From NCBI GenBank assembly GCA_014905635.1, contig JABVCE010000010.1, forward strand, positions 682,001-746,000: a DNA stretch of 64,000 bases, written 5' to 3'. Position numbers and translations under genes: made by a program. The notes under the pieces are model-generated. The model was not told the DNA's origin, ran no database searches, and saw only the letters and a list, made by a program, of their open reading frames with translations. This document shows, one piece after another, positions 2,424-44,730 of the stretch. The stretch's first letter is position 1. Each line of letters starts with the position of its first letter. The DNA is from Scenedesmus sp. PABB004 (taxonomy: Eukaryota).

Positions 2424-5400
2424 TCAGCGGCCGCCGACCTGGACGAGCGCGCCGCCCGGCCCGGTCAGCACGGCGCTGGCGGCCGCGGCGGAGAGCATCT
2501 GGCACTCAGCCTCGCGCTGCGCGGCGCAGCGCTTGTCGTGCTTGCGGCACTTGCGCTTGCAGTCGCACGGGCGGCACCTGCCGTCGGTGCCGCAGGTGGA
2601 GCCGGGGCAGCAGTCGCGCGGCGCGGCGCACGCCTCGCCGTTCTGCTTGCACGCAAACGGCTTGGTGCACACGCCGCGCTTGCCGTAGTGGTCCCACTTG
2701 CAGGTGAGGCCGTCGCAGCAGACGCCGCCGCCGCCGCACTCGCCGCAGGGCTGGCCCTCGGGGCGGCAGCCCTCGCCCGGCTTGCACGCGTACCACGACG
2801 TGTGGATGCCGTAGACGGGCTTGCACGCGCTCGTGCTGTCGCAGCAGGGGTTGCAGCCGGGGGCCGTGCAGGGCTCGCACATGCGCCAGGTGGGAACGCA
2901 GAACTGCGGCCGCCGCGCGGGCGGCGGCGGGGCGACGTGGCGGGTGAGCTGGTGGGGGCCGGCGCGCGCGTGTGCTCGGGCGGCGGTGCGCACGCGCGAC
3001 CAGCGCTGGGGACGAGGCGCGCGCGCGCGCGGCAGGCGCGCGCAGGCCGCCGCGGCAGGCCGCCGCCGACTCACCGCCGCCGGGCAGAGCGCAACCGTGC
3101 AGCTCGCGTTCTGCGTCCACGTGCCATTCACGCAAGTCGACTCGCGCACGGGCGCTGTGCACTTGCGTGCGGTTGAGTCGCAGCACGCGCCCGTGGCCGT
3201 CGGCAGGATGGGGCAGGCGACCTGGCTGCAGGTCAAGCCGCGGTTCCAGGTGCCGTCGTCGGCGCGGCACACACTGGCAGTGCCCTCCGCGCACGCGCCG
3301 CTGGCCAGGCAGCACGCGCCAATGGCGGCAGGGCAGTTGGCGACCGTGCAGGCCTCGTCTTGCGCCCACTGACCGCCCTGCGCCTGGCACCAGGCCGCCG
3401 TGGCGTTGGGCGTGCACCTGCTCTGAGCCGGCTGGCAGCACGCGCCACGCGGGGTCACTGGTGGGTCGCTGCCACAGGTCGTTGGGTTGCAGGTCTGGTT
3501 GGTGTAAAATGTGCCGGCGTCCTGGGTGCAGGCGTTGAGCGTGTAGTTGTTGCGGCAGTCCCGCCCCACGCAGCACGCGCCGACGGTCGGCTTGCGCGTG
3601 CACGTCACGGTTGCGCAGCTCTGGCCTGGATTGTACACGCCGTCCACGCAAGCCGACTCGGACACCACCAGGCATTGCCCGCTGCTGGCGCAGCACACGC
3701 CGCCGACCTGTGCACACACGAGCGGGGCAGGCGGGTGCCACGGGTGAGCGGCAGCATCGCGCACGCGCATGAACCGGGCAGCAAGCAGGGCGCGCCGCCC
3801 CGCGCCGCGCCCGCCCCAGCCACACGGTTGGGGCGGCTGGCCGCCAGCCGCTGGCCGCGGCCGCACGCACGCCCGCGCAGGTCAGCGCACCACGGTGACA
3901 CGCGCTTCCGCTTTGTTGTTGCCCTGGTTGCGGTCGTTGGTCGCGTTGACCGAGGCGCGGTTGGTGAAGCTGCCCGCACGCGCCGCCTTGACCGTGACTG
4001 CCAGCGAGTAGGTCTCAGCAAAGGCCAGGTCCCCGACCGCGCAGGTGATCACAGGATAGCGAATGGTGCACCCAGTGTCTGCGCGGCGGCGCGGCGCGGC
4101 AGCACGGCACAGTTGCCGCGGAGGCAGTTGGCGGCAGGCGCCGCGCCGCCGGGCGACGGGGCAGCGGGCGGCCAGGCGTGGCGTGCGCTGCATGGGCCGC
4201 GCTCAAAGGCCGAGGCTTGGCTGTGCGGCCCATGCCCCGCAGGGTGCACGCGGCGCGCGCACCCGGCCTGACGGCAACGAGCTCGAGGCCGCCCGGCAGG
4301 CGGTCTGTGATGACCACGTCCTTGGCGCCGTCGAGTCCGTCGACCACGGTGGCGGTGAGCTTGAAGTCAAAGGCCTGGCCGATCAGCTGGGTGCTGGCGG
4401 GGCCTGTTTTGGTGATGGCGACGTCTGCAACGGCCGTGGGGATGATGGGCTGGTCCGCGCACACGCCCGACTGTGCGCCGGGCAGCTTTCGGCAAATAAG
4501 CTTGCTGGATGGACACGTGCAGGTGATGAAGCCGCCGCAGCCGTCGGTGAAGTTGCCGCAGAGTCCGGCGTAGGACGAGTTGCAGGACAGGCAGACGACC
4601 TGCACGGCCCTGTTGGCCTGGTTGTTGCTCGGGTTGATGTCGCCGGTCGCGTTAACCGTGGCAACGTTGGTCCAGGAGCCCGCGGCGGTGCCCTTGACGC
4701 GCACAGTGACAAACACAGTCTCCGCCAGCGACATGGGGCCGATGTTGCAGGTGATTGTGGCGCCCGAGGAGGCGCAGCTGCCCTTGTCAGGCTTGGCGGA
4801 CACCAGCTCCAGCCCCGCGGGCAGCGTGTCTGTGACGTTGACGTCGTTGGCGCCGCTCTTGCCGTCTTTCACGCGCACCGTGAGCGTGAAGTCAAACTCG
4901 GAGCCAATCAACTGCGGCGTCTTTGGAGCACTCTTGTCAATCAAAACATCCAGGTCGCGGCTGGGGACAAAGGGGCTGTCGGAGCAATAGCCTGGGTCCG
5001 ACTGATTCTGAAGTCCGGTATGCTGGCAGTAGGGAGTGCTGGTCGGGCATGTGCAGTTGATCAGTGCACCGCAACCGTTGTCGTAGGAGCCGCACAGGTC
5101 GGGGAAGTCGTAGCACGTCTTGCAGTCCGTCTGCGGCGGCGCGGCAGGGCGGCACACGCGCATGAGCTCAGGTCAGGACCGGCACGAGCGCTGGCAGGTT
5201 GTGCAGCTGCGCTCGCCGGCTGCCCTGCCAGCCGCAGCAGCTGCCGACCACAGCAGCGCAACCCAGCCGCCCCCGGCCGCCACTCACGCAGCAGGTCTGC
5301 TGGCTCGGGTTGGGGTTGGACGCCTGCGCTGGGTTGTACTTGGAGCCGGGGCTGCAGTCGTAGCGGCTGCCGTCGGAGTAGTATTGCGCGCACGTGCGGG

Positions 5401-8400
5401 TGACCGTGACGGGCGCAACCACGGGGCCGTTGTTGAACGGGTTGGCGTCCTTGTTGGCCGACACGCGCGCAGAGTTGTTCCAGCTGCCCGCTGCTATGGC
5501 CGTGACCGGCACCAGGTACGTGAGCTTGTCGCCAGCCACCACGGTGCTGGGGCCGCACGTGAGCACCTGCGCGACTTGGGAGCAGCCTGCGTGCGCGAGC
5601 AGCAGCAGCGCGCGCCGTGAGCGCCGACAGCGGGCGCGGCGCAGGCGCGCCAGCGAGCTGCCCAGCGCGCGTTGCCGCCCAGCCGGCAGCTCGACCGACG
5701 AGCTGAGCCCCCGCCCCAACCTGCCGCACCTGCTGGCAGGGGCGTCGCGAACGCGAGACCGGCCGGCAGCGTGTCGTTCACGATCACGCCCGTGGCGGTG
5801 GCGGTGCCCACGTTGGTGGCGGTGATGGTGTACGTGACCTGGTTGCTGATCAGCACCGACGGCGACGACACGCTCTTGGCGATTGACATGTCGGGCACGC
5901 GCTCGGCCTGAGGGCGGCGGTGTGCAGCGACGGCACGCACGCAGGCGCGCAAGGGCGGAGGTGAGCGGTGGTGGATGCTCAAGCCGCAACGGCTCATGCT
6001 GGCCAGCGGCTGCCCACCATGCAGCAGGTGGCTTGGCTGGGGTTGCGGTTGTTCGCGGCGCTCGTGTTGAACACGTAGCCCGCGTCACAGACGTACGGCA
6101 CCACGTTGTTGCCCAAGGGGCCCAGCTTGAACTTGGCGCAGGTGTTATAGACCGTGACGTTGGCCACGACAGGGCCGTTGTTGGCAGTGTTGTTGTCGCC
6201 CTGCCCCGACACAACGGCGCTGTTGTCAAACTGCCCCGGCAGCGTGCTCGTCACCGGTATGACGTAGCTCACGCTCGCGTTGACGACCAGCCGCGAGGGG
6301 CCACACGTCAACACCTGCCCCGCTGCGGAGCAGCCTGCGCGGCAGCGGCGGGCAGCGGCTCAGCAGGCAAGGATGGCATCGCACGCGCCGCGGGCACAAG
6401 CAAGCGCGCGCGCACGGTCAGGGGCGGAGAGCTGCCAGGAACATGCGGCCAGGCGGCCCGCCGGGCTGCGCGCGCACCCGCCGGCAGCGGCGTCTGGATC
6501 ACGAGGCTGGCGGGGATGGTATCTGTGACCGTCACGTTGTTGGCGGTGACATTGTTTGGTGACTGGTTGGTGACGCGGATCGTGTAGGCAAACGGCGTCC
6601 CGAGCTCAACCACCGGGCTGGAGACAACCTTGGTGATGGCAAGGTCAGAGCCTGGGCGTGGAGGGCAGGGCGGAGAGCGCGGCGGCGGGGGCAGGCGCAT
6701 CAGCTGCAAGCCGGTTGCAAGCCGCTGGCTGCTCGTGGCGGGGCGGGCCTGCGGTCTGACGAGCCGGCGCCCAGGCGTGCGCCGCACCGTTGAGCGGCGG
6801 CTTCGGCACCACGACCGTTGCCTGGGCCTTGTTGTTGTTCGCGTTGCCGTCCTGGGACGCGAAGACCTCAACAATGTTGGTCCAGTTGCCTGCTGCCGTG
6901 GCATTGGTGAGGAACGAGTAGCTCCAGGTCTGCGCCACCGGCATCAGCGTGTTGATGGTGCACTTGAGCTCGCGCGTGGCCGCCGTAAAGGCGCACGACG
7001 CTGTGGCGGCGGCGGCGGCGGCGGTGCATGTTGGGGGAGGGGGTCGGGCAGCAGCGGCCGGCCGGCGAGCTCCGCTGCGCGCTGCGGCGCCGCGCCCCAC
7101 CCGCCGGCGAGCTGCCCAGCCGCGTGACGCCCGCGCTTGCGTTGTACGCGAGCCCAGCCGGCAGCGTGTCGGTGAAGTTGAGCGGCGGCCGGATGTCAAA
7201 CTTGCCGGTGTTGACCAGGTCAATGCGGAAGGTAAAGCTGCCGCCGATGGGCTGCGGGCTCGCTGACGCCGACTTGGCGACGCCCGCGTCTGTGCACACG
7301 CCGCGCACGATCTCGGCCACCGCGGCCTGCAGCTGGTCGTAGTTTGCCACAGGGTAGTACTGCCCGAGGCTGCTCAGGAACGTGGCGTTGAGGTCGGGGC
7401 CCACGCCCACCGAGATGAGGGTGATATCGTTGGCCTTGATGGCATCGGCTGTGGCGCGGCGCGGCGCAGCGCAGTCGTGGACGCGCCAGCCGTCGGCGGC
7501 GGGCGGCACAGACGCTGCGGGCGACGAGGCGCGGTCCCCGCGCTGCTGTCGGCGCCGCGCGCCCCGCCGCCCCGCTCACCGCGCAGCTGGACGGCGTCGA
7601 ACGCGCACGTGCCGTTCACCACCGCGCACACAGGCGGGGGCGGGTTGGGCCTGTTGACGCACGTGCAGTTTGAGGACGCAGCGTCTGGGGGCGACGCGAT
7701 GTTCTTAGTGTTCGGGTCGCCATCCGTGATCATCATCACGATGCGTGGCAGCTTGGGGATGACGTTGCGCGTGATGATGCCGCCCTTCACGCCGTTGGTG
7801 ACGTTGAAGCATGCTGCGCGCCGCGCGGCGAGCGGGTCGCAAGCGGACGGCCGGGCGCGGGCGCGGGCGCGGGCGCAGGCGCAGGCGCCGCCCGGCCCAG
7901 CACGGGGGCGCTGCGGCAGGCTGGCGCGCGCGCCGCCGCACCGGCGAGGCCCGCCTCCATGTTGGTCGTGCCTTTGTTGTAGGGCATGTTGCTGATGGCG
8001 GCCTTGGCGGCGGTGGCGTCTGCGGTCATCGACTCTAGCCCCGCCACGAGCGCGGCGCGCGTGCCGAAGCTCGCCGCGCCCCACTGCGACACTGCACGCG
8101 CGGGGGCGGGGCAGTGGGCGCCGGCGCGGCTTCCGGCCGCCGGCCGTGGCCGGCGCGGCGCGCCTGCCGCCGCCGCGCAGGCCGCTGCGCGCGCACCGTC
8201 CGCCTCGGCGGCAACGCCGGTGATCACGTCGTCGACAAACCCCTTGGCCTTGGCAAAGTCCGCGTCGCCGATCGAGCCGCTCTCATCAATCACGAAGCAG
8301 ATTGCCACGCCGCACACGTTGACGGGCGCATCGCCCGCCTCGCGCGACAGCGGCGGCGCCGGCTGCGCGGCGGCGCGCGGCGCGGCCAGCAGCGCCAGCA

Positions 8401-8455
8401 GCAGCGCGAGCGCCGTCGCCGGCTGCGCCGGCCTCCGGGGCGGCGTCCGCCTCAT
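2424..8455 (-). CDS. Large secreted multi-exon protein: signal peptide, vWA domain, 5 DUF11-like Ig repeats, CGxxxxGCG Cys modules, 5 GACC Cys repeats and knottin-like C-terminal modules
   Basis: Exons encode FVIDESGSI, GTTNMEAGL, MMITDGDPN and LISVGVG (vWA). Five units match D(L/V/M/A)xxxK...F/Y.(I/L)...TDTLPAGL...N...D.N..NN. Repeated G(A/V)CC...C...C...G.(W/F/Y)...C...C units follow. Stop TGA at 2424-2426. Confidence 0.85.
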
Positions 8456-9038
8456 GGCCGCGGCCGGAGGCAGGCCTGCGGCGGCGGCAGCACAGCGTCA
8501 CCGGGCGGCGGCAGCGGCAGAGCAGCGCCTGCGGCGAGGTGCCCCGCCGCGAGCGCGCCGGGCGCGGCGCCCGACGGTGCGTTGATGGCTGTGCCGATGC
8601 GGGCGGCAGGACGCGGGACCGCCAGGCGCCCCTGCCTCGCCGCGGCAGGCGAGGGGCGGAGCCCATCGCCCGTGGCGGGCGCGCTCACCGCTTGTGCGGC
8701 GCGCGGAGCCCAGTAAACGCGGCAACAAGCAGAGCTCTCTACGTGGAGCAGCGGCGCCGCGGCTGCTAGCGGCGTGGCCGGAAGAATTGGCGTTTTGCGG
8801 CGCGAAGCACCCGCACTGCCTACTGTTGCGGCCGCGCCGGTGGCTGGCGCGACTGGAAATGCGGCTATGAGAGGGCTAGGGCGTGGTGGGGAGGCGTGGG
8901 CGATCGAGGAGATTGTGTGTATCTGGGCGGCGTTGCACGCGGGGGGTCCGGCGCCCCTTCCCTGGCCCCGCGCTCGCGCCGGGCTGGGCGCACCACCACC
9001 ACGCCTGGCGGCACCTGCCCCAGCCGCCAGCGGGAGCG

Positions 9039-11278
9039 TCACCGGCTGTGCGCCGCGAGCAGCTTGTCCATGTCGAGGCTCTCAAACGCCTCCGCGCTCA
9101 TCGCCTCCACCGCGGCCACGAGGCCCTTGTAGTCGACCTGGCGGCGCGGCGGCGGCACCGGCGGCGGGGGCACGGTCAGCCCCGCCCCAGCGCGCGCGCC
9201 GCGGGGTGCGCTGCGCGCGCCCCGGCGGCGGGTGCGCGGCGCGCGGCGCGGCGCGGCGCGGCGCGGCGCGCACCTCGGGCTGGCGCGGCGGGTCGGGCAG
9301 CGCATCAAACTCTGCCTCCCAGGCGGCCGGCAGCTTGACGCGCTCCGACTTGAGCTGGCGCTGCACGTTGCGCTCCGCATACCTGCGGCGGCGCGGCGGT
9401 CAGGCGCGCGGGCGCGTGCAGCGCGCAGCGCCTGGGCCGCCCGCGCGTCGGCGGCGGCGGCGCGCGGCGTGGTGCGCGCCGCCGCGGCCGCGCACCGCTC
9501 AGCGTTGAGCAGCGCGAGGCGCAGCCCCTCGGCGGTGAACGGCAGCTGCACCGACGCGCCGCCGTCCGCCAGCGCCTCGGCGGGGAAGGTGTCCCGCAGG
9601 CGCGCCATCTCGTCGGCAAACCCGGGCGCCGCCGACTTGACCGCGCGCGCCGCGTCACGGTAGCACGCGCGCAGCTCCTGCGCGCGCACCTGCAGGAGCG
9701 GCCGCGGCGCGGCGGGAGGGCGCGGCGTGGGCAGCGGGGGCGCGCGCGCGCGCTGCCCTCCGCGCGCTGCCTGCGCGCGACGCGACGCGCCACGCGGCGC
9801 GGCGCGCGGCGGCGGCAGCTGTCGGCGTGCCTTTTTGAACTGGTCGGCCATGCTGGCCTTCTCCTGCAGCTCCAGGTACTCCTGCCACTGCTCCAGCCGG
9901 CCGTCGCTCTCGGCGCGGCCGCTCTTGAGCCAGTACGCCGCCGCCGCGTCGGCCTTGTCTGCGTCTGGCTGGATGATCTCATCGATGATGCCATACTCAA
10001 GCGCGTCCTGCGAGCCGGGCCGGGCCGGGCCGGTCTGAGGGCCGGGGGCGAGGCTCCTGGGCGAGACCGCTGTGCAAGGCCGCGGCAGCGCGGCGCCGCG
10101 CGCGCGCAATGCGGCGGCGGCCCCGGCCCGCGCGCGCGCCTGGGGGCGCATGTAGAGGGGGCGCTGCATGTCGGCGTCCAGCTTGTCCACGCCCCAGCCC
10201 GTGGCGATGCTGAGGCAGCGCAGCAGCTCGCGCTTGTAGTCCAACACCTCCCGCCACTTGATGTGGACCTCGACCGCCTGGCGCTGCCCCGTGGGCGGCA
10301 CGCGCGGCTGCTGCAGCATCGCTGCGGCGCGGCGCGCGGGGGAGGGCGGGCGCGCGGTGATGCGCGGCGGCCGGGGCTGTCGTGCCCGCCGCGGGCCGGC
10401 GGGCGGGCGCCGCCACGCCTCACCCAGCGAGTGCGGCAGGCTCTTGCGCAGGCCCTTGCGGCCGTAGCCGAGGACCACCGCCGACCAGCCCACCGCGAGG
10501 CCCATGTTGACGGTGGAGATCTGCAAGCCAAGGGGCCGCGCGGCGGCGCGGCGGCGTGGGCGCTCGCCGCCGGGCGGGCGCTGCTGCCAGCCGGCGCCGG
10601 CGCCGCCGCGAGCCCCGCGGCCCGCCGGCGCACCGGGTTCTTCACGAAGCCCATGGTCGAGGTCAGCGCGATGCCCTCGCTGTCAAACGCAAGCTGCGGG
10701 GCGCGCACGGGCCGGGGCGGGGCGGGGTGCGGCGGTCGGGGCGGGCGGCGCCGCTGCCGCTGCTGCCGCCGCCGCTGCTCCCGCCGCCGCTGCCGCCGCC
10801 GCCGCCGCGCGCCCCCGCGCCGGCGACGCACGATCTCGCCGTCCTGGCGCGTGGTGCCCGAGGAGTTGATGAGCATCTCGATGGGCAGCGAGGTGCCCTG
10901 CTTCTCCAGGTACAGCAGCTCCGCGACCATGAGCTCCGTCACAGCCGGCACCAGCTGCGGCGGCGCGGGGCGGCGTCAGGGCGTAGCCCGGGCGTCGCCC
11001 TGGGCCCCCGCACGTCCCCCCGGCCCGCGCCGGCGGCTCACGGGCATGCCCAGGTAGACGATGCGCTGATCGAACAGCAGGCTGGGCAGGTCGGGCGGAG
11101 GGGGCCGCCGCCGGTCCCCCCGCGCCATGCGGGCCCGCACGATCACCGCCCGGTCACGACCCCGCACGCCCGCGGCCTGGGGGCGGCGCTGGCCCCGGGC
11201 CTGGGGCGGCCGCAGGCCGCTGCTGCTGCTGCTGCGCCCGCCCGCGCCCTGGGCCACCCCGCCTCGCAGCGCCTGCAT
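9039..11278 (-). CDS. CLPR3: Plastid Clp protease non-catalytic subunit, ClpR3-like, with transit peptide and C-terminal extension (multi-exon)
   Basis: RPPPPDLPSLLFDQRIVYLGMP / LVPAVTELMVAELLYL / INSSGTTRQDGE / AMLQQPRVP / DALEYGIIDEI. The catalytic Ser region reads LAVGWSA and the His region reads MLQQP, as expected for ClpR. The subtype call is from recalled motifs. Confidence 0.85.
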
Positions 11279-11906: not shown

Positions 11907-13020
11907 TCACGCGTGCTTCGCCTGGAACGCGCGCATAAAGTCGGCGAGCGCGGCGACGCCCTCGGGCGGCATCGCGTTGTAGATGCTCGCGCGCATGCCG
12001 CCCACGCTGCGGTGGCCCTTGAGCTCCAGCAGCGACGCCGCCGCCGCGTCGGCCACAAACGCCTTCTCCAGCTCCGGCTTGGACGGGATGGTGAACGGCA
12101 CGTTCATCTTGCTCCGCGCGTCCTCCGCCACGGGGGAGCAGTAGAAGCCGCCCGACGACGCGATCGTGTCGTACAGCAGGCCGGCCTTGGCCGCGTTGCG
12201 CTCCGCCGCGCCTGCGCGCGCGGCGCCGCGCGTGGGCTGCGCGCCGCGCGCCCGCCCGCCGCGCGCGCTCCGGGGCCCCCCGCGCGCGCCGCTGCACGCC
12301 CGCGCGCCGCGCCGCGCGCCCGCGCCCGCGCCGCGCGTCCCCCTGCGCGGCGCACCCGCGAGGCCGCCGTGCTTGAGCAGGTGCTTGAACACGAGGCCGC
12401 ACACGTAGATCGGCCAGCAGGGCGGCGTGTTGTACATCGAACCGTTGTCCGACGCGACCTTGTAGTCCAGCATCGTGGGGCAGCTCGCGCTGCGCGGCGG
12501 CGCGGGCCGGGCGCGGCGGCAGCGGCGTGAGGCGAGGGCGGCGCGCGGTGCGGCGTGAGGCGGCGGCGCGCGGCGGCGGCGCGAGGCGTGAGGCGCGGGC
12601 CGGGTGGGGCGCGGCGCGCCGTGCAGCAGCGGCGGCGCGGCGCACCGCGCGTGGCCGATCATGTCGTCGCGCACGATCGCGATGACGACGCCGGAGGGGC
12701 CCACGTTCTTCTGCGCACCCGCATAGATCATGGCGTACCTGCGCGGTGTGGTGTGGGCGTGGCGGGGAGGGGCACAGGGGCACAGGGGCACAGGGGCAGG
12801 CAGGGGCACAGGGGCAGGCAGGGGCAGAGGGCGGGTGGTGTCAGCGGGCGGGGGCGGGCAACGCAGGGAGGGCGGGGGCGGCGCGGCCCCGCGCCGCGCG
12901 CGCCGCGGCGCACTTGCTGACGTCGACGGGCTTGCTGAGGAAGTTGGAGGACATGTCGGCGATCAGCGGCGCGTCGCCGACGTCGGGCGCGCCCGTGAAC
13001 TCGACGCCTGGCGGCCGCGG

Positions 13021-13059
<39 letters not shown>

Positions 13060-13921
13060 CGCGGCCGCCCCGCCCCGCGCAGCGCCGGCAGGCAGGCGGC
13101 GGCCACCCTAAACCGTTCCTCCCCGCGCGCGGCGCTGTGCGGCGCTGTGCGGCGCGGCGGCGCACCGCCGATGGTCTCGTTGTCGCAGTAGTGGACGTAC
13201 TTGGCGCCGGGCGTGAGCTTCCAGGCGTCGCGCGGCGGGATGCTCTTGTTGTCGCCCTTGGCCACGAGGTTTGCGGTCAGCCCAAACTTGGCCGCCTCCT
13301 CAAACGCCTTCTTGCTCCACGCGCCAGTGACGACATAGTCGACCGTGTCGCCTGCGTGTCGTCGCGCGGCGCGCGGGGCTCGCGCGGGGCTCACGCGCGG
13401 GGCGGCGCGGGCGCGCCGGCCGGCGCGACGGCGGGGCGGCTGCCGCTGTCGCGCTGCCGCCGCCGCGCCGCGGCGCCGGGGCGCGGCGCACCCTCGGCCG
13501 TGAAGTTGAGCGGGATGGCCGCAAACTGCGTGGACGCGCCGCCCTGGAGGAAGAGCACCTTGTAGTTGCCGGGGATGGCCAGGAGCGTGCGGAGGTCGGC
13601 CTCGGCCTGCTTGATGATGCCCTCAAACGCCTTGCTGCGGTGGCTCATCTCCATCACGCTCATGCCGCTGCCCGCGTAGTTGAGCGTCTCCGCCTGCGTC
13701 TGCTGCAGCACCTCCAGCGGCAGCATCGCCGGGCCGGCGCTGAAGTTGAACACGCGGCCCGCCTCCATCGCGCCGGCGGCCACGCGGCGGCCCTCGATCG
13801 AGCGGGTGCTGCTGCCGCGGTGGGGCGCCGCGGTGGGGCGCCGCGGCGGCGCGCGGGCGGGGGCGCGCGAGGTCGGGGAGCGACGGGAGACCGCTGGCTG
13901 GCCGGCGCGGCTGCTCTGCAT
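11907..13921 (-). CDS. PSAT: Phosphoserine aminotransferase, probable plastid transit peptide (multi-exon)
   Basis: [60 protein letters not shown] (PLP lysine), [22 protein letters not shown]. Confidence 0.97.
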
Positions 13922-14434
13922 GCGGACGGCGGCGGGGATGCCGAGAGCAGGCGGCCGGGCTGCTGCGGCGCGCGGAGGGCTGGGAGCGCTCTCGCGAGAG
14001 GGGAAGTCGTTGGGGAGTGTCGGGCGCTGCCGGGGATCGCGACGCCCGGGCGGAACGGGAGCGCGCAGCCGGCAGCTGGCGGGACGGGTGCAGCACGCCG
14101 CGCCGCACGCCTCGCGCGTGAGAGGCGGGCGCGCCGCCCTGGCGTGGGCGCACCGCGAGCGCTGGTCCGCGGGCAACACGCGCGGGGTCACCTGCGGCGC
14201 GCGCCACCGCAGCGCGCGGCGCGCACCGCCGCGCGCCCGCGGCCGCCGATCACGAGGGTCGGGGATCACGCGCAGCCCGCCGCCCCGAGCCCCTGCAGAG
14301 CAGCACCAGCACCCCCCTGCCGCCCCGGTCACGCCCACGCCCAGCCCGCGCGCCCAGTGCCGCCGCGCAGCCCTGCTCCGCCTCCCCGTCTGCCGCAGCC
14401 CTGCGCGCCAAGGCCCCGAGCCTCCCCGCTCCCT

Positions 14435-14463
14435 CGCGCTCAGAGCCAGGGCATCCCCCGCGC

Positions 14464-14480
<17 letters not shown>
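14435..14480. repeat. 22-nt direct repeat, period 24, duplicating the last ATR codons and stop
   Basis: cgcgctcagagccagggcatcc at 14435-14456 and 14459-14480. Confidence 0.9.
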
Positions 14481-29250
<14,770 letters not shown>

Positions 29251-32111: not shown

Positions 32112-32478
32112 GCGCATGAACGCACGAGCGCGGCGCGGCGGCGCGGAGCGCGGCGGCGGCCGCGTACCGCCGCGCAGCGGCGTGCGCAGTACAGGGCGCG
32201 CGCGAGCGCCCGTGGACGCGCCCGATCCGTACTCTGTGACTTCAGGAGCCATGGCGTGAGGCGCTGCGCGGTGCGCGCGAGCTCGCTCCGCATCTGCTTC
32301 GCGCGCGGCAGTTCAGCTGCCGCCCGGTTGAAGGCGCGTCACACGCGCCTGAGGTACCTGAAGTTGCTCCCGTGCCCGCGCCGCGCTCCACGGCCCCGCG
32401 CAGCGCAGCAGCCGCCCCGCGCACAGCAGCCCCTGCCGCCGTCGCCCGGACGCAGCTGCCCAGGCCGTCACCGCATCC

Positions 32479-33665
32479 ATGTCGCGGCGCTCCGCCCTCG
32501 TGGCGCTGGCCGTCGCGCTGCTCTGCGCGCACGCGGCGGGTGAGTGCGCTGGCGCTGCGCGACAGGGCTGCCTGGGGCCCGGGGCGTCCGCGGAAAGAGT
32601 GCTTTCGCACACACAGCGCTACACGCGCAGCCGCGCGAGCTGCAGCGCCCGGGCGCGACGCGGGAGTAGGGGGCGTGGACGCGCATGGCGGGAGCGCCCG
32701 CGGCGCCGCGCGGCCGCGCCGCAGCGCCAGCGCGGTGCCGCCCCAGCTTGGCACCCTTCTTACCGCCCCGCACGACCTCACGCACCGCGCCGCCGCCACC
32801 CGCAGACGCCGCCGGCGGCCGCGCGCTGCTGCAGGGCAACCACAACAACCTGGACCGCGGCATGCTCGCCCAGATCGCCATGAACGACGCGACCCAGCGC
32901 GTGCACAACGCCCAGACGGCCATCTCGGCGTCCATCAACAACCGCTTCGGCAGCCGCAACCTCAAGCAGACGCTCGGCGACGACATGAACGCGGCGGCGC
33001 AGAAGGTCAGCCAGCAGGTCTGGGACCTCAACGCCGCGACCAAGGCGGAGCTGTCCGGCCGCGCGCTCAAGCAGACGCTCGGCGACGACATGAACGCGGC
33101 GGCGCAGAAGGTCAGCCAGCAGGTCTGGGACCTCAACGCCGCGACCAAGGCGGAGCTGTCCGGCCGCGCGCTCAAGCAGACGCTCGGCGACGACATGAAC
33201 GCGGCGGCGCAGAAGGTCAGCCAGCAGGTCTGGGACCTCAACGCCGCGACCAAGGCGGAGCTGTCCGGCCGCGCGCTCAAGCAGACGGTCAGTGGCGACA
33301 TGAACGCGGCGGCGCAGAAGGTGGTCCAGGCCGTGTGGGACCTGGACTCCGCGGCCAACGCCCAGGTCGCCGGCCGCGCGCTCCGGCAGACGGTCAGCGG
33401 CGACATGAACGCCGCCGCGCAGAAGGTCACGCAGGCGGTGTGGGACCTCACCTCCGCGACCAACGCCGAGGTGTCGGGCCGCGCGCTCAAGGCGTTCCGC
33501 CGCTCCCTGGCCCAGGCCATCATCCAGTCGCCCGAGAGCTACACCGACATGATGACCACCAACACCGCCGCCATCAACGACGCGCGCGCCAAGGTCGCCC
33601 GCACCGCGTTTGACCTCATGCAGGCCGCCAACGCGCGCTTCGCGAGCGCCGAGCAGCAGCAGTGA
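32479..33665 (+). CDS. Secreted tandem-repeat polyprotein / putative peptide precursor (exon 1 32479-32539, exon 2 32806-33665)
   Basis: Signal peptide MSRRSALVALAVALLCAHA, canonical GTGAGT...CGCAG intron, strong C/G-ending codon bias, 35-aa repeats delimited by RxLx|Q. Confidence 0.9.
32961..33490 (+). repeat. Coding tandem repeat, 105-bp unit x5 (three identical, two diverged)
   Basis: Units start at 32961, 33066, 33171, 33276 and 33381, with a partial unit at 33486. Confidence 0.97.
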
Positions 33666-34289
33666 GCGCGTGCTGCGGGCCCGCCCCGCGGCACCGCCGG
33701 CCGGCGCCAGGAATAGGGGCAGCAGGGGCAGCAGGCGGCGGCACCGGGTGCACGGAAGGGGGGGCGGGGGCATGCGTGTTGCTGCACTGTCTGCGCCGGG
33801 CAACCACCTGTCGCGCGTGTTCGCCCTCGGCGGCCACATGGCCTGGCCCTGCGCAGGGCTGTTGTCTGAGAACAGGGTATTGGTAACGTCTCTCCCAACG
33901 CTCGGCGACCGCGCGCGCGCGCCCGCCGTCAGCGGCCGCGCGGCGGCACAACCGCGCCAGGGCATTGCCAAACCGCCGCCGGGGCACGCGGCCCCGCCGC
34001 AGCACTGCCGCGGCACTCCCTCCCCCCTGCACCACTTCTGCCCAGCAGCGCTGTCGGACCCGTGCGCCGCCTTGCTCTCTCCGGCCGCCGCGCAGCAGCC
34101 GCACCGGCGAGCAGCGCCGAGCCTCGCGCGCGCGAGCGCCGCCGGGGACCGCCACCGAGGCCGTGCTGGTCTTCGTCACGCCCTCGTCGCGTCGCCACGC
34201 ATGAGGGCCGCCGCGGGCGGCCGCTAGGCGCGGGCGCCCATCTCCTCGTTTGGTGCCCGGCCCCAGCGGCCCCGGCGGCCCGCGGCACG

Positions 34290-35445
34290 ATGGGCGGCGC
34301 TCCCGAGGACGAGCAGGTCCTGCTGAAGGCGCCGGACGGCGTGGAGCTCCGCAGCAGCCACGGCGGCGCCGCCGCGGCGGACACCTGGACGCTCCGCGCG
34401 CAGCGAGCGCACGCGCGTGCCGCGAGTGCGCTGGCCGACTCCGTGGCGCGCACGGCGGTGCGCTGCGGCCTCCTCATCCTCACCTGGTGCGCGCCGGGGG
34501 CGCCGCGGGCCGCCGGCGAGGGGACGGGGCGCGGAGGCGCAGCAGCAGCAGCGCGGGGCGGTTGGCGGCGCCGGCGGCTGCGCACGCGCGCAACCGCCGG
34601 CGCCGCCGGCTCGCGCGCAGGTACTTTCTGAGCACAGCGCTGGGCCTGTACAACAAGAAGCTGGTGGGCAAGAAGCACGGCCTGTTTGGGAACGGCGCGT
34701 TCCCAGGTGCGGCGGCGGATGCCGGGGCCGTGGCGGCAGCAGTCGTCGCCGGCAGCGACAGCGGCGGCGGCGGCGGCAGCTTGAGCACACCCCGCCCTCC
34801 GCCGCCGCCGCCGCCGCCGCGCCGCAGCGCCGCTGCTGCTCACGGGCGTGCAGTTTTTCTTTCAGCACCTGCTCGCGCGCGCCGTGTTTGCCACCGGCGC
34901 CGTGCAGCGCACCGGCGCGCCGCTGTCGTGGCGCGACTGGAGCAAGCTGGGTGCGCGGCGCGCGCCGCCGCGCGCCTCGCCGCCGCCGCCCACCGCCCGC
35001 GCGCCCCCGCGGCCGCCGACCCCCGCCGACCCCCGCCGCTGCCGCTGCCGCCGCCGCCTCGCGCGCGGCCGCGCCACAGTGCTGCCCAACGGCACGGTCA
35101 CGGGGCTGGACATCGGCTTCAGCAACGCGAGCCTGGTGCACATCACGATGAGCTTCTACACGATGTGCAAGAGCACCACGCCCATCTTCCTGCTCGCCTT
35201 TGCCTTCCTCTGGGGCCTCGAGACGTGCGCCGCGCCACGGGCTCGGCGGCGGCGCGCGGCGGCGGCACGCGGCGGGGGCGGGGGTGGCGGCGCGGGCGGC
35301 GCGCGCCGGGCGGGAGCGCGGCAGCGCGCCGACGCGCCCGCCCCCGCGCCGCAGGCCGAGCTGGGGCCTCGCGGGCGTCGTCGCGGTGATCGTGTCGGGC
35401 CTGCTGCTGCTGGTGCAGGGCGAGGCCGACTTTGACACCACGGGT

Positions 35446-35477
<32 letters not shown>

Positions 35478-36794
35478 AATGGCAGCAGCGCGCCGCGCGC
35501 CCCGCGCTGCCGCGCGGCGCTGCTCGCACGGCGCTCTTTCTCGACGCGCCCCCGCGGCCCCGCCGCCCGCCGCGCCGCCAGGCTTTGTGCTGGTCATGTC
35601 TGCCAGCTGCATGAGTGGCCTGCGCTTCACGCTCACGCAGCTGCTGCTGCACGGCAGCAAGCCGGGGCACGACCACGGTGCGCGCGCGCGCCCCGTCCGC
35701 CGCCCCGCCCGCCGCGCGCGCGCGCCGCCGCGCCGCGCCGCCGCGCCGCGCGCGCGCCGCCCGCGGGCGCGGCCGCCGGCCGCCCACGTCCGCGCGCGCC
35801 GCCGCCGCGCGCACCCGCCGCGGCAGCGCCCGCGCCGTTTGGCGGGCCGCTGGAGGTGCTGGAGATCCTGACGCCGGTCATGTCGGCCACGACGCTGGCG
35901 CTGAGCCTCGCGACGGAGCGCCTGTGGACGACGCTGCCGGGCAGCCCCTACTTTGCGAGCGGGCGCCACTGCCTCATCACCACCGCGCTCATCCTCTTTG
36001 GCGCGCTCATAGCGTTCCTCATGGTCTGGACGGAGTACCAGGTGGGGGGGGGGGGCGTGGGCGTGCGCTGGTGGGCGTGGGTGTGCGTTGGGTGTGGGTG
36101 CATGTGTGGGTGCGTGGGTGGGTGGGCGGGCGGGTGTGTGTGCGTGGGTGGGCGGGTGTGCATGTCTGTCTGTGCGCGTGTGCCAGGCGGCGGCGGCGCG
36201 CCGCCCCGCGCGCCGCTCGGCCGACGCCCCGCCGCACGCGCACGCGCACGCGCGCGACGACGCGCGCAGGTCATCAAGGAGACGAGCGCGCTGACGTTTA
36301 TGATCGCGGGCACGGTCAAGGAGGTCGTCACGGTCGTGACGGCGGTGCTGGTCTTTGGCGACCACTTTGGCCCGCTCAACGGCCTCGGCCTCGTCATTGT
36401 CATCGCCGGCGTGCTGCTCTTCAACTGGTACAAGCTCCAGCGCCTCAAGGCGCGCGTGCGCGAGCGCATCGCGACCGCGGGCGGCGCCGACGAGGCCGAG
36501 GGCGTGCCGGGCGGCGGCGGCGGCGGGAGCGGCGGCGGCGGCGTGCCGATACGGGTGCTCTCGGCGTCGGCCGGCGGCGCGAGCCCGCGCGGCGGCGCGC
36601 GGCTCGGCAGCGCGGCGAGCGGCGGCGGCGCGCGGCTCGGCAGCGCGACCAGCGGCGGCGGCCCGCGGCTCGGCAGCGCGACGAGCGCCGGCGGCGCCGG
36701 GGGCGACCCGCACCGGCGGCGCGCCAGCCTGGACGAGCTCGAGGCGGCCGAGGTCGTGCGCGCGCTGGAGGCGGAGCCGCTGCTACGCCGGTGA
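34290..36794 (+). CDS. Nucleotide-sugar / triose-phosphate transporter family protein (SLC35C2-like), multi-exon
   Basis: LILTW/YFLSTALGLYNK, TGLDIGFSNASLVHITMSFYTMCKSTTPIFLLAFAFLWGLE, SGLRFTLTQLLL, IKETSALTFMIAGTVKEVVTV; about 10 hydrophobic segments. Confidence 0.92.
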
Positions 36795-43335: not shown

Positions 43336-44730
43336 TCAGTTGCCGGGCACGAACTTGGTGGCGTAGTTCCAGGCGTTGTTGCCGGAGGGGTCGCTCAGGT
43401 GGGCGTCGAGGTTGGCGATCGGGCCCTGGCCGGTCACGATCGCCTGCACGAAGAAGCCAAACATGCTGAACATGGCGAGGCGGCCGTTCTTGATCTCCTT
43501 GACCTTGAGCTCGGCGAAGGTGTCCGGGTCGTCGGCGAGGCCGAGGGGGTCGAACGCCTCACCGGGGTAGAGGGGGTCCAGGCCCTCGCCGGCGGGGCCG
43601 CCGTTCACGCGGTAGCCCTCGACCAGGCCCATGAGGATGACCTGGGGGGCGAGCGGACGGTGCATGAGCGTGGCGCGAGCGCGAGGCGCCGCGCGCGGCT
43701 GCCGACGCGGGCGGGCGGCTGCCGCCGCGGCGGCGCGGCTGCTGCGGCCGGCGGGGCCTGGCCGCCGCTGCCGCGCCCGCGTGCGCCGCGCGCGGGCGCG
43801 CACCTGGGTGGCGAGGGTCGCGAGGATCGACTGCGCGTGGATGAGGCTGCTGTTGCCGAGGTAGTTCAGGCCGCCCTCCTGGAAGATCTGCGCGCCGGCC
43901 TTGAACCACACGGCCTCGCCGAACGGCACGCCGTTCTTGGCCAGCAGCTCAGGGGTCACGCAGCCCAGCGCGCCTGGCGAGAGCGGGGCGCGAGCGGCGG
44001 CGGCGCAGCGCGTGAGCGCAGCGGCGGCGCGCTGCGGCGCGCTGCGGCGCGCGGCGGCGGCCCGCGAGCTCGGGGCGTGCTCGGCCGGGCACCGGCGGGC
44101 TCGGGGCGCCGCGCAGCGCTCGGGGGCGCCCGGGCGCGGCCGGATCTGGCGCCCGCGCTGCGCGGGAGCCCGATTGTGCGCAGATGCGCCCTCGGCGCCC
44201 CGGCGCGGCGCGAGGGGCGTCGCGGGGCCTCACCGAGCATGGCCCAGCGGGCGTGGATGAGCTCCAGCTCGCGGTAGCGGCGGAAGGTCTCCGGGTCGGC
44301 CGAGAGGCCGGCGGTGTCCCAGCCGTAGTCGCCGGCGAACTCGCCGGTGAGGTAGGCGGGGGTGTTGGTGGAGAAGGGGCCCAGCCACTTGGCGCGGTTG
44401 GGGCCGTAGAACTCGGTGCCCTTGCTGGCCGAGGCCTTGGAGACCTGCGCAGGCGGCGGCAGGGCGTCGGGGCGTGAGATCGGGGCAGGGCGAGGCGACG
44501 CGGAAGCATCCGCGCCGGCGCGGGGGCGCAGCGGGCGCCACAGGGCCCGGGGCGGGGCGGTCCATGCCGGCGCGCCATCGCAGCGCCCCTGCGCCGCGTC
44601 GGGGCCGCCACGACGCCCGCGCAGCGCCGCGACAGGCGTGGCACGCGGCGCGCACCTTCTTGGCAGACTTGGCCGCGGTCTTCTTGGCCTGCACGCTCAC
44701 GGTGCGGGCGCGCATCATGGTGGCAGCCAT
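43336..44730 (-). CDS. LHCBM: Major light-harvesting chlorophyll a/b-binding protein of PSII (4 exons)
   Basis: [86 protein letters not shown]. Confidence 0.98.

Follow-up and report, generated by a model that had tools for sequence, protein, structure and literature searches.

Is the tandem-repeat protein encoded at 32479-33665 of the DNA studied here a precursor that is cut into peptides, or a repeat protein that does its work uncleaved? The DNA is a 64-kb (64,000-nucleotide) stretch of contig JABVCE010000010.1 (positions 682,001 to 746,000 of the forward strand), hereafter the window, and all positions are counted from its first letter. What raises the question is a short motif, R-x-L-x, at the head of the repeats. 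The original prediction, made from the letters of the window alone, took the protein for a prohormone-like precursor of end-protected peptides; the sequence observation itself is confirmed, and the interpretation as a whole is partly supported. The reading we favour, and to which we give about an even chance, is that of a secreted precursor (a polyprotein) cut at R-x-L-(L/K) by an endoprotease of the secretory pathway, of the site-1 protease (S1P, also SKI-1) or SBT6.1 kind. Secretion, cleavage, the identity of the protease and any modification of the peptide ends we infer from sequence.

Judged by its sequence, 32479-33665 holds a genuine gene of two exons: the exon with the signal-like peptide connects in frame to the rest of the protein across an intron with canonical GT..AG ends, GC content follows codon position, and homologues are collinear with the product. 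Its parts, with lengths in nucleotides (nt), are as follows:

32479..32539, forward strand: exon 1, 61 nt, with the ATG at 32479; 20 codons plus one base, which is the first base of the Asp21 codon
32540..32805, forward strand: predicted intron, 266 nt, GTGAGT...CAG, phase 1; GC 0.786 against an exon GC at third codon positions of 0.990
32806..33665, forward strand: exon 2, 860 nt, the remaining protein and a TGA stop at 33663-33665

The spliced coding sequence of 921 nt encodes 306 amino acids (aa), and its GC content at codon positions 1, 2 and 3 is 0.668, 0.476 and 0.990 (intron: 0.786), which marks it strongly as coding. The peptide of exon 1 has an Arg-Arg n-region, a hydrophobic core of 12-13 residues and Ala-His-Ala ahead of the likely signal-peptidase site; assessed by eye with the -3/-1 rule, the N-terminus is signal-like, in keeping with the signal peptide that had been claimed for it. 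Tandem repeats of 20-22 nt lie at 32375-32423, in the 5′ leader, and at 32688-32747, in the intron. Neither TGTAA nor AATAAA is present in the 635 nt 3′ of the stop (33666-34300).

Downstream of the signal peptide the protein is laid out thus:

between the signal peptide and the N-type unit, forward strand: five-residue leader, ending directly before the first RALL
32820..32954, forward strand: N-type unit, 45 aa (aa 26-70), with RALL-Q at its head; aligns collinearly with N-type units in the homologues
32955..33479, forward strand: five central units of 35 aa (aa 71-245), 105 bp each, starting at 32955, 33060, 33165, 33270 and 33375
33480..33500, forward strand: 7-residue remnant (aa 246-252), RALK then Ala; head of a truncated central unit
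33501..33662, forward strand: terminal unit, 54 aa (aa 253-306), with RSLA-Q at its head; aligns collinearly with the C-terminal units in the homologues P0005 and P0011

All eight R-x-L-x motifs of the original prediction are present (RALL, RNLK, three RALK, RALR, RALK and RSLA), with Gln as the next residue at seven of the eight. The heads of central units 1-5 read RNLK, RALK, RALK, RALK and RALR; Gln follows in all five, and all five units end, as had been noted, in Gly directly before Arg. Central units 1-3 share one 31-aa peptide after the motif, which bears out the claim of three identical copies. There is a ninth R-x-L-x-like match, R-G-M-L, within the N-type unit, and the C-terminus of the spliced protein is without an R-x-L motif.

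At the DNA level the repetition is recent. Tandem Repeats Finder reports a 105-bp period (5.1 copies, 90% matches) at 32961-33491; central units 2 and 3 have the same sequence, from which unit 1 departs at 3 nt, while units 4 and 5 are 18-24 nt away from units 1-3, through both synonymous and non-synonymous codon changes. The contigs from four sequencing runs are short (three are 135-nt unitigs in which the repeat has collapsed), and their gaps are uninformative. One 403-nt variant contig from a freshwater metagenome covers 33236-33638 with 9 differences, and five of the seven changes listed for it turn central unit 4 into the form of units 1-3 and RALR into RALK. Taken as sequence, this variant suggests that in a related strain the repeat units have undergone gene conversion with one another. 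A tblastn search of the 64-kb window with the family found no paralogue beyond 32808-33662. The exon-2 protein contains eight R-x-L-x motifs, against 1.26 ± 1.04 in 5000 shuffles (maximum 6); since the copies arose by recent duplication, however, a tally taken inside one gene carries no independent weight, and independent evidence has to come from homologues.

Homologues exist. A phmmer search of 1.84 billion representatives with the window protein gave 16 matches, among them six short collinear relatives (P0005, P0007, P0009, P0010, P0011 and P0015; E-values from 5e-14 to 3e-5, 35-50% identity), and profile searches add P0022-P0033, with E-values down to 4e-73. Beyond the window the family amounts to about 19 fragments of open reading frames (ORFs) from metagenome contigs, which fall into two further lineages: P0005/P0011/P0020, and a larger P0007-P0033 group. 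Some of the fragments bear plainly wrong automatic names, and several begin or end at a likely intron. The long phmmer matches (P0004, P0006, P0008, P0012, P0013, P0014 and P0016-P0019) were set aside as unrelated repeat proteins: P0008, P0017 and P0019 by sequence, P0004 (a ray protein) and P0012 (a bacterial TIR protein) by source name, and P0006, P0013, P0014, P0016 and P0018 by length and low identity only.

Outside this circle nothing matched. The Pfam scan of the window protein listed 10 families at E-values up to 10, all under their gathering scores (best E 0.00039), so that neither the LEA and apolipoprotein families nor any other entry of Pfam is matched; a profile search of PDB gave no match at E ≤ 1. 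Queries of the ESM Atlas with the window protein (P0001) and P0005 returned no usable match, and none of the 1026 candidates from a word-indexed homologue search with P0001 reached E ≤ 0.01. Scans for contigs encoding homologues produced pattern matches in metagenomes (599 and 229), prokaryote genomes (54 and 40) and viruses (88), none of which was confirmed. Literature searches found no publication on the family, judged by title among the matches listed. As far as sequence comparison goes, the protein has relatives and is not an orphan, but the small family they form corresponds to none so far described.

The unit types recur in the same order across the family. N-type units measure 45-48 aa and central units 33-36 aa, the latter with the core D-(M/V)-N-x-x-A-x-(K/R/N)-(V/I); a proline-containing unit of 34-39 aa occurs in the large P0007-P0033 group, and the terminal unit in the window protein, P0005 and P0011. 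Copy number, which the original prediction had proposed to compare across genomes, varies among homologues: N-type units number one or two per protein and central units between one and five. In unit number and order the homologues differ as modular precursors do. The N-type units (in P0007, P0010, P0015, P0022, P0023, P0026 and aa 26-70 of the window protein) look like a central-type unit with an added head of about 11 residues. At the position homologous to the central motif they have kept the Arg and lost the leucines (mostly R-F-x-x; R-G-M-L in the window), and a fresh R-x-L-L stands 11-12 residues upstream of it.

Exon structure appears to differ between lineages. The sequences suggest that in the large lineage each unit has its own exon, with the intron 6-7 codons ahead of the motif; a single exon of the window gene holds all of its units. 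Many fragments among P0022, P0023, P0026, P0029, P0030 and P0031 terminate in ‘...Ala-Arg’, and P0030 and P0031 start in junk that runs into ‘Arg-Phe-Ser-Ala-Val-Ser-Gly’ right before the motif.

What does the family say about the motif? Conservation of the spacers among homologues had been set beforehand as a check, and the outcome favours the prediction, with about three lineages behind it: R-x-L-L stands at 46 of 46 boundaries, in the two further lineages and in four unit types (a count made by hand, which excludes one overlapping match and two matches in read-through tails). Position P3 takes eight residue types across the family, window included (A, N, S, T, G, H, Q and R), while P4 and P2 are fixed; the fourth position of the motif has drifted to Lys, Arg or Ala in the window protein. 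Because the division into units used the motif itself, it is circular as a measure of conservation. A non-circular count, anchored on the core and with three rows of truncated upstream sequence dropped, places R-x-L-x 7-9 residues upstream of the D-[MV]-N core in 33 of 34 cases (28 of 29 when the window protein is left out). Under a wider tally the figure is 54 of 58; besides the miss of the narrower count, three second-core anchors in the window are missed, their motif lying just past the 22-residue look-back.

The motif keeps its place across N-type, central, proline-containing and terminal units, and it directly follows leaders that are quite unlike one another: five residues in the window protein, a Pro/Lys-rich stretch of about 40 residues in P0023. 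By these comparisons its conservation does not depend on the recent duplications that the window gene has undergone. R-x-L-L at the repeat heads is the only strictly conserved linear feature of the family.

The precursor reading would work as follows. The signal peptide is presumably removed on entry to the secretory pathway, where an endoprotease that recognises R-x-L would cut at the motifs; candidates are a subtilase of the site-1-protease/SBT6.1 type or the ‘RXL’ type of endopeptidase that has been inferred in diatoms. The expected products are one peptide of 45 residues, five of about 31-35 and one of about 50, all helix-prone and neutral to mildly acidic, and those with Gln after the motif could carry an N-terminal pyroglutamate (pyroGlu).

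Precedents for such cleavage are known. A motif of the S1P/SBT6.1 type, R-x-(hydrophobic)-x or R-x-x-L as defined in PMC4983112, is found in the window protein and in the homologues, and the family motif fits, by analogy, the published R-x-L-x/R-x-x-L subtilase sites (PMC4983112): SBT6.1 cleaves GOLVEN1 (GLV1) after RRLR and RRRAL (PMC4983112). In Chlamydomonas the catalytic core of the subtilase Cre14.g628800 is most like that of SKI-1/S1P (PMC6313938). The substrates of S1P and SBT6.1, RALF23 and pectin methylesterases among them, are likewise proteins of the secretory pathway with R-x-L-x or R-x-x-L sites. Those known release a single peptide or domain through one or two such sites, and we know of none with eight, the number in the window protein.

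The closest architectural precedent, as an analogy, is the diatom silaffin precursor Sil1p, in which the signal peptide is followed by an RXL motif and by seven units with RRIL or RRNL tetrapeptides that are absent from the mature peptides (PMC4557024); a general RXL endopeptidase in diatoms was inferred by the authors of that review. The window protein shares the silaffin architecture, with about seven tandem homologous units, each with an R-x-(I/N/L)-L tetrapeptide, and, as in Sil1p and the other RXL-processed biosilica proteins (cingulins, silacidins and frustulins), R-x-L comes soon after the signal peptide. Unlike in Sil1p, the motif stands at the head of the units: in silaffins it is at their C-terminal end, and the window protein has none at its C-terminus. 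Silaffin units, moreover, are Lys/Ser-rich, basic and heavily modified (PMC4557024), as substrates of polyamine and phosphate modification, whereas those of the window protein are Ala/Gln/Asn-rich, helical and neutral to acidic, and the two proteins have no sequence similarity.

With fungal Kex2-processed repeat proteins (KEPs) and the multi-copy neuropeptide precursors of animals the window protein shares a signal peptide, the absence of a known domain and tandem near-identical cores flanked by a protease motif (PMC6313938); unlike the dibasic spacers of those precursors (Lys-Arg and similar), the spacers here are R-x-L-(L/K). This difference extends to the boundaries as a whole, which read Gly/Ser/Thr-Arg-x-Leu. 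None is dibasic, the sole Arg-Arg of the mature part lying in the 7-residue remnant, and none is of the furin type, so that in its boundary sites the protein is unlike a classical prohormone and unlike the neuropeptide-like precursors described for Chlamydomonas (PMC6313938). The family's cores also run longer, at 31-48 residues. Those of KEPs and neuropeptide precursors are mostly shorter. One further type of polyprotein, the plastid type (Euglena or dinoflagellate style), was dropped, because the leader of only five residues between signal peptide and first unit leaves no transit-peptide-like stretch.

Composition and predicted structure bear on the main rival explanation, a serious one although we hold it somewhat less likely: that this is an uncleaved secreted helical repeat protein (of wall, matrix or surface, or stress-protective), in which Gly and R-x-L-L would form a structural helix stop and start or a binding element. 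The 306-aa protein contains 67 Ala, 29 Gln, 20 Ser and 14 Lys. Without an alignment AlphaFold2 models it as all helix, with breaks near the Ser-Gly-Arg junctions (predicted local distance difference test, pLDDT, 49.8; predicted template modelling score, pTM, 0.22); with an eight-sequence alignment it places helices inside the units (pLDDT 58.4, pTM 0.23), and no compact fold is predicted in these models. An all-helical prediction and an Ala/Gln/Leu/Asn-rich composition are what such a repeat protein would lead one to expect. Yet in the alignment-based model residues 1-13, 47-60 and 79-93 of P0001, which take in the first three of the eight motifs, have pLDDT below 50 and are partly coil, and in a fourth stretch of low confidence (176-201) the helix is briefly interrupted at 184-187, immediately ahead of RALR; the motif thus falls in non-helical stretches at two or three of eight boundaries, which speaks against a purely structural role.

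The repeats themselves can be argued both ways. Unit lengths of 33, 35 and 36 are close to three hendecads, but the hydrophobic periodicity of the units peaks at 3.9 residues and not at the 3.67 of LEA- and apolipoprotein-like proteins. Homogenisation of the copies by gene conversion (units 2 and 3 identical; unit 4 of the variant contig) is seen in structural repeat genes, and the Arg kept at the decayed motif position of N-type units (R-F-x-x) hints at a structural role. Against this, a free P3 between fixed P4 and P2 is the pattern of a recognition site, and the motif also heads the proline-containing unit and follows non-homologous leaders. Group 3 LEA proteins, exchangeable apolipoproteins and perilipins resemble the family in their helix-prone, low-complexity tandem units with a length near a multiple of 11 and a helix breaker. 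The resemblance ends there: the window protein matches no LEA, apolipoprotein, perilipin or other repeat family in Pfam and nothing in PDB, and its units have a hydrophobic moment of only 0.18-0.31. We know of no LEA, apolipoprotein or perilipin family with an invariant R-x-L motif.

Several points weigh against cleavage at the motifs. Structural repeat proteins that stay uncleaved just as typically have units of 33-36 residues, a helical composition rich in Ala, Gln and Asn, and copies that evolve in concert, and the conserved R-x-L-L might mark the start of a helix or serve for binding. The alignment-based model draws residues 91-183 as one unbroken helix over two unit boundaries, and the helix at 188-240 runs mostly unbroken over the next two; both AlphaFold2 models are of low confidence, and therefore too weak for fold searches and of little weight. 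One of the 34 cores, in P0033, has His in place of the motif Arg. All the homologues are fragments of ORFs that prokaryotic gene finders predicted on metagenome contigs, and many are near-duplicates of one lineage, so that the 46 motifs correspond to about three independent lineages. Finally, no S8 protease, peptidylglycine alpha-amidating monooxygenase (PAM) or glutaminyl cyclase is among the scanned window ORFs of at least 250 aa, which says little for a stretch of 64 kb.

If the precursor is cut, where would the cut fall? At the 46 homologue boundaries the residue after the motif is Gln in 18 cases and Lys in 25, the Lys being followed by Glu every time; the remaining three have Val, Gly or Glu. 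PEXEL-type aspartic proteases, such as plasmepsin V and ASP5 of apicomplexans, cut after the Leu of R-x-L, with the consensus R-x-L-x-E/Q/D, and a protease of this type would release products that begin one residue earlier and are without an N-terminal Gln. R-x-L-x-Q at seven of eight window motifs fits that consensus, as does Gln or Glu as fifth residue at 19 of 46 homologue boundaries (hand count). The commonest homologue boundary, R-[HQN]-L-L-K (25 of 46), does not, having Lys as its fifth residue, and others have Val, Gly or Ala there; we know of no PEXEL-type protease in green algae, and hold this route to be very unlikely indeed.

The same residues decide how much of the original scheme for the peptide ends survives. 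PyroGlu N-termini may form where Gln follows the motif (seven of eight window motifs, 18 of 46 homologue boundaries); with Lys at 25 of 46 and other residues at three, they are not a feature of the family. Before the motif Arg the homologues have Gly at 25 boundaries, Thr at 10, Ser at six, Arg at three and Ala at two, and Gly-Arg stands at six of eight boundaries in the window. The claim that Gly serves as amidation donor is poorly supported, Gly being present at 25 of 46 boundaries and N-type units never ending in it (they end in Thr, Ser or Arg). Going by sequence, amidation of the products is unlikely, and Gly is more simply read as a breaker of helices.

The scheme in full, a prohormone-like precursor whose peptides are both pyroGlu-capped and amidated by PAM, we regard as very unlikely. 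It draws on the frequencies of Gly and Gln at the boundaries just given, on the active PAM and amidated peptides of Chlamydomonas (PMC6313938, PMC6919629, PMC9351486) and on silaffin maturation, which removes the RRIL/RRNL spacer (PMC4557024); amidation of the family's peptides would require just such a prior removal of the four-residue spacer. It has to contend with boundaries that lack dibasic or Gly-basic-basic sites, with N-type units that lack the terminal Gly, with the central units of the largest lineage, which start with Lys-Glu, and with a Gly that is equally well explained as helix breaker.

As to the character of the peptides, the amphipathicity that had been claimed is present, but it is modest (hydrophobic moment 0.18-0.31 at 100 degrees). 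Net charge is 0 for a whole unit with its spacer and about -2 for the unit-2 peptide of the window without it (hand count), which makes a cationic antimicrobial peptide unlikely.

On its sequence the family would best be filed with the known repeat precursors that have conserved spacers, from which R-x-L-L spacers, long helical cores and an algal host would set it apart. Algal peptide signalling is known from very few precursors, and these follow an animal-like logic of dibasic sites and amidation. Should the precursor reading be right, algae would also make multi-copy peptides by an S1P/RXL route. The family would supply a natural multi-site substrate for the S1P-like subtilases of algae, and R-x-L-L at the head of each repeat would be a simple sequence rule for mining further precursors. 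A bolder version, that this is the first algal family of multi-copy peptide precursors released at R-x-L-L by a non-dibasic protease of S1P type, with helical peptides of about 30-45 residues, some of them with pyroGlu, serving as extracellular pheromone, density or settlement cues, we think unlikely; it would add a third way of processing repeat-peptide precursors to the dibasic one of animals and fungi and the RXL one of diatom silica proteins. Were the protein to stay uncleaved, it would still represent a family of secreted helical repeats that has not been described and whose invariant motif calls for an explanation.

The remainder of the window bears on the nature of the host. Its GC content, about 0.69-0.83 in 2-kb steps with a mean of about 0.78, is extreme for a eukaryote. 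There are 340 ORFs of at least 120 aa, with long spurious ORFs in all six frames; the Pfam scan took in 143 of the 147 ORFs of at least 250 aa. Genes recognised in this way are:

43339-44229, reverse strand: exon of a chlorophyll a/b-binding (LHC) protein, Pfam E 8e-25
35436-36791: TPT-family transporter, just downstream of the repeat-protein gene
13394-23058, reverse strand: large FAT/FATC (PI3K-related kinase) gene, split over several ORFs
11910-15337, reverse strand: class-V aminotransferase beside the FAT/FATC gene
9042-10682, reverse strand: piece of a Clp protease beside the FAT/FATC gene
4018-8497, reverse strand: gene of several exons that combines a VWA domain with four or more pieces of DUF11 repeat, best E 4.6e-31

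Further Pfam matches in window ORFs are to FGE-sulfatase, methyltransferases, TFIIB, a clathrin adaptor small chain and PP2C, and several of the genes lie in pieces across ORFs, as expected of exons. From the LHC exon the organism is a photosynthetic eukaryote; the genes of the window give no closer placement, to Chlamydomonas included, and the LHC gene does not discriminate green from red-lineage algae. A GC content of about 79% is, to our knowledge, unlike that of any diatom. The sole marked dip in GC content (0.69-0.71 against about 0.78) is where the VWA/DUF11 gene sits; DUF11 is mostly a bacterial and archaeal repeat.

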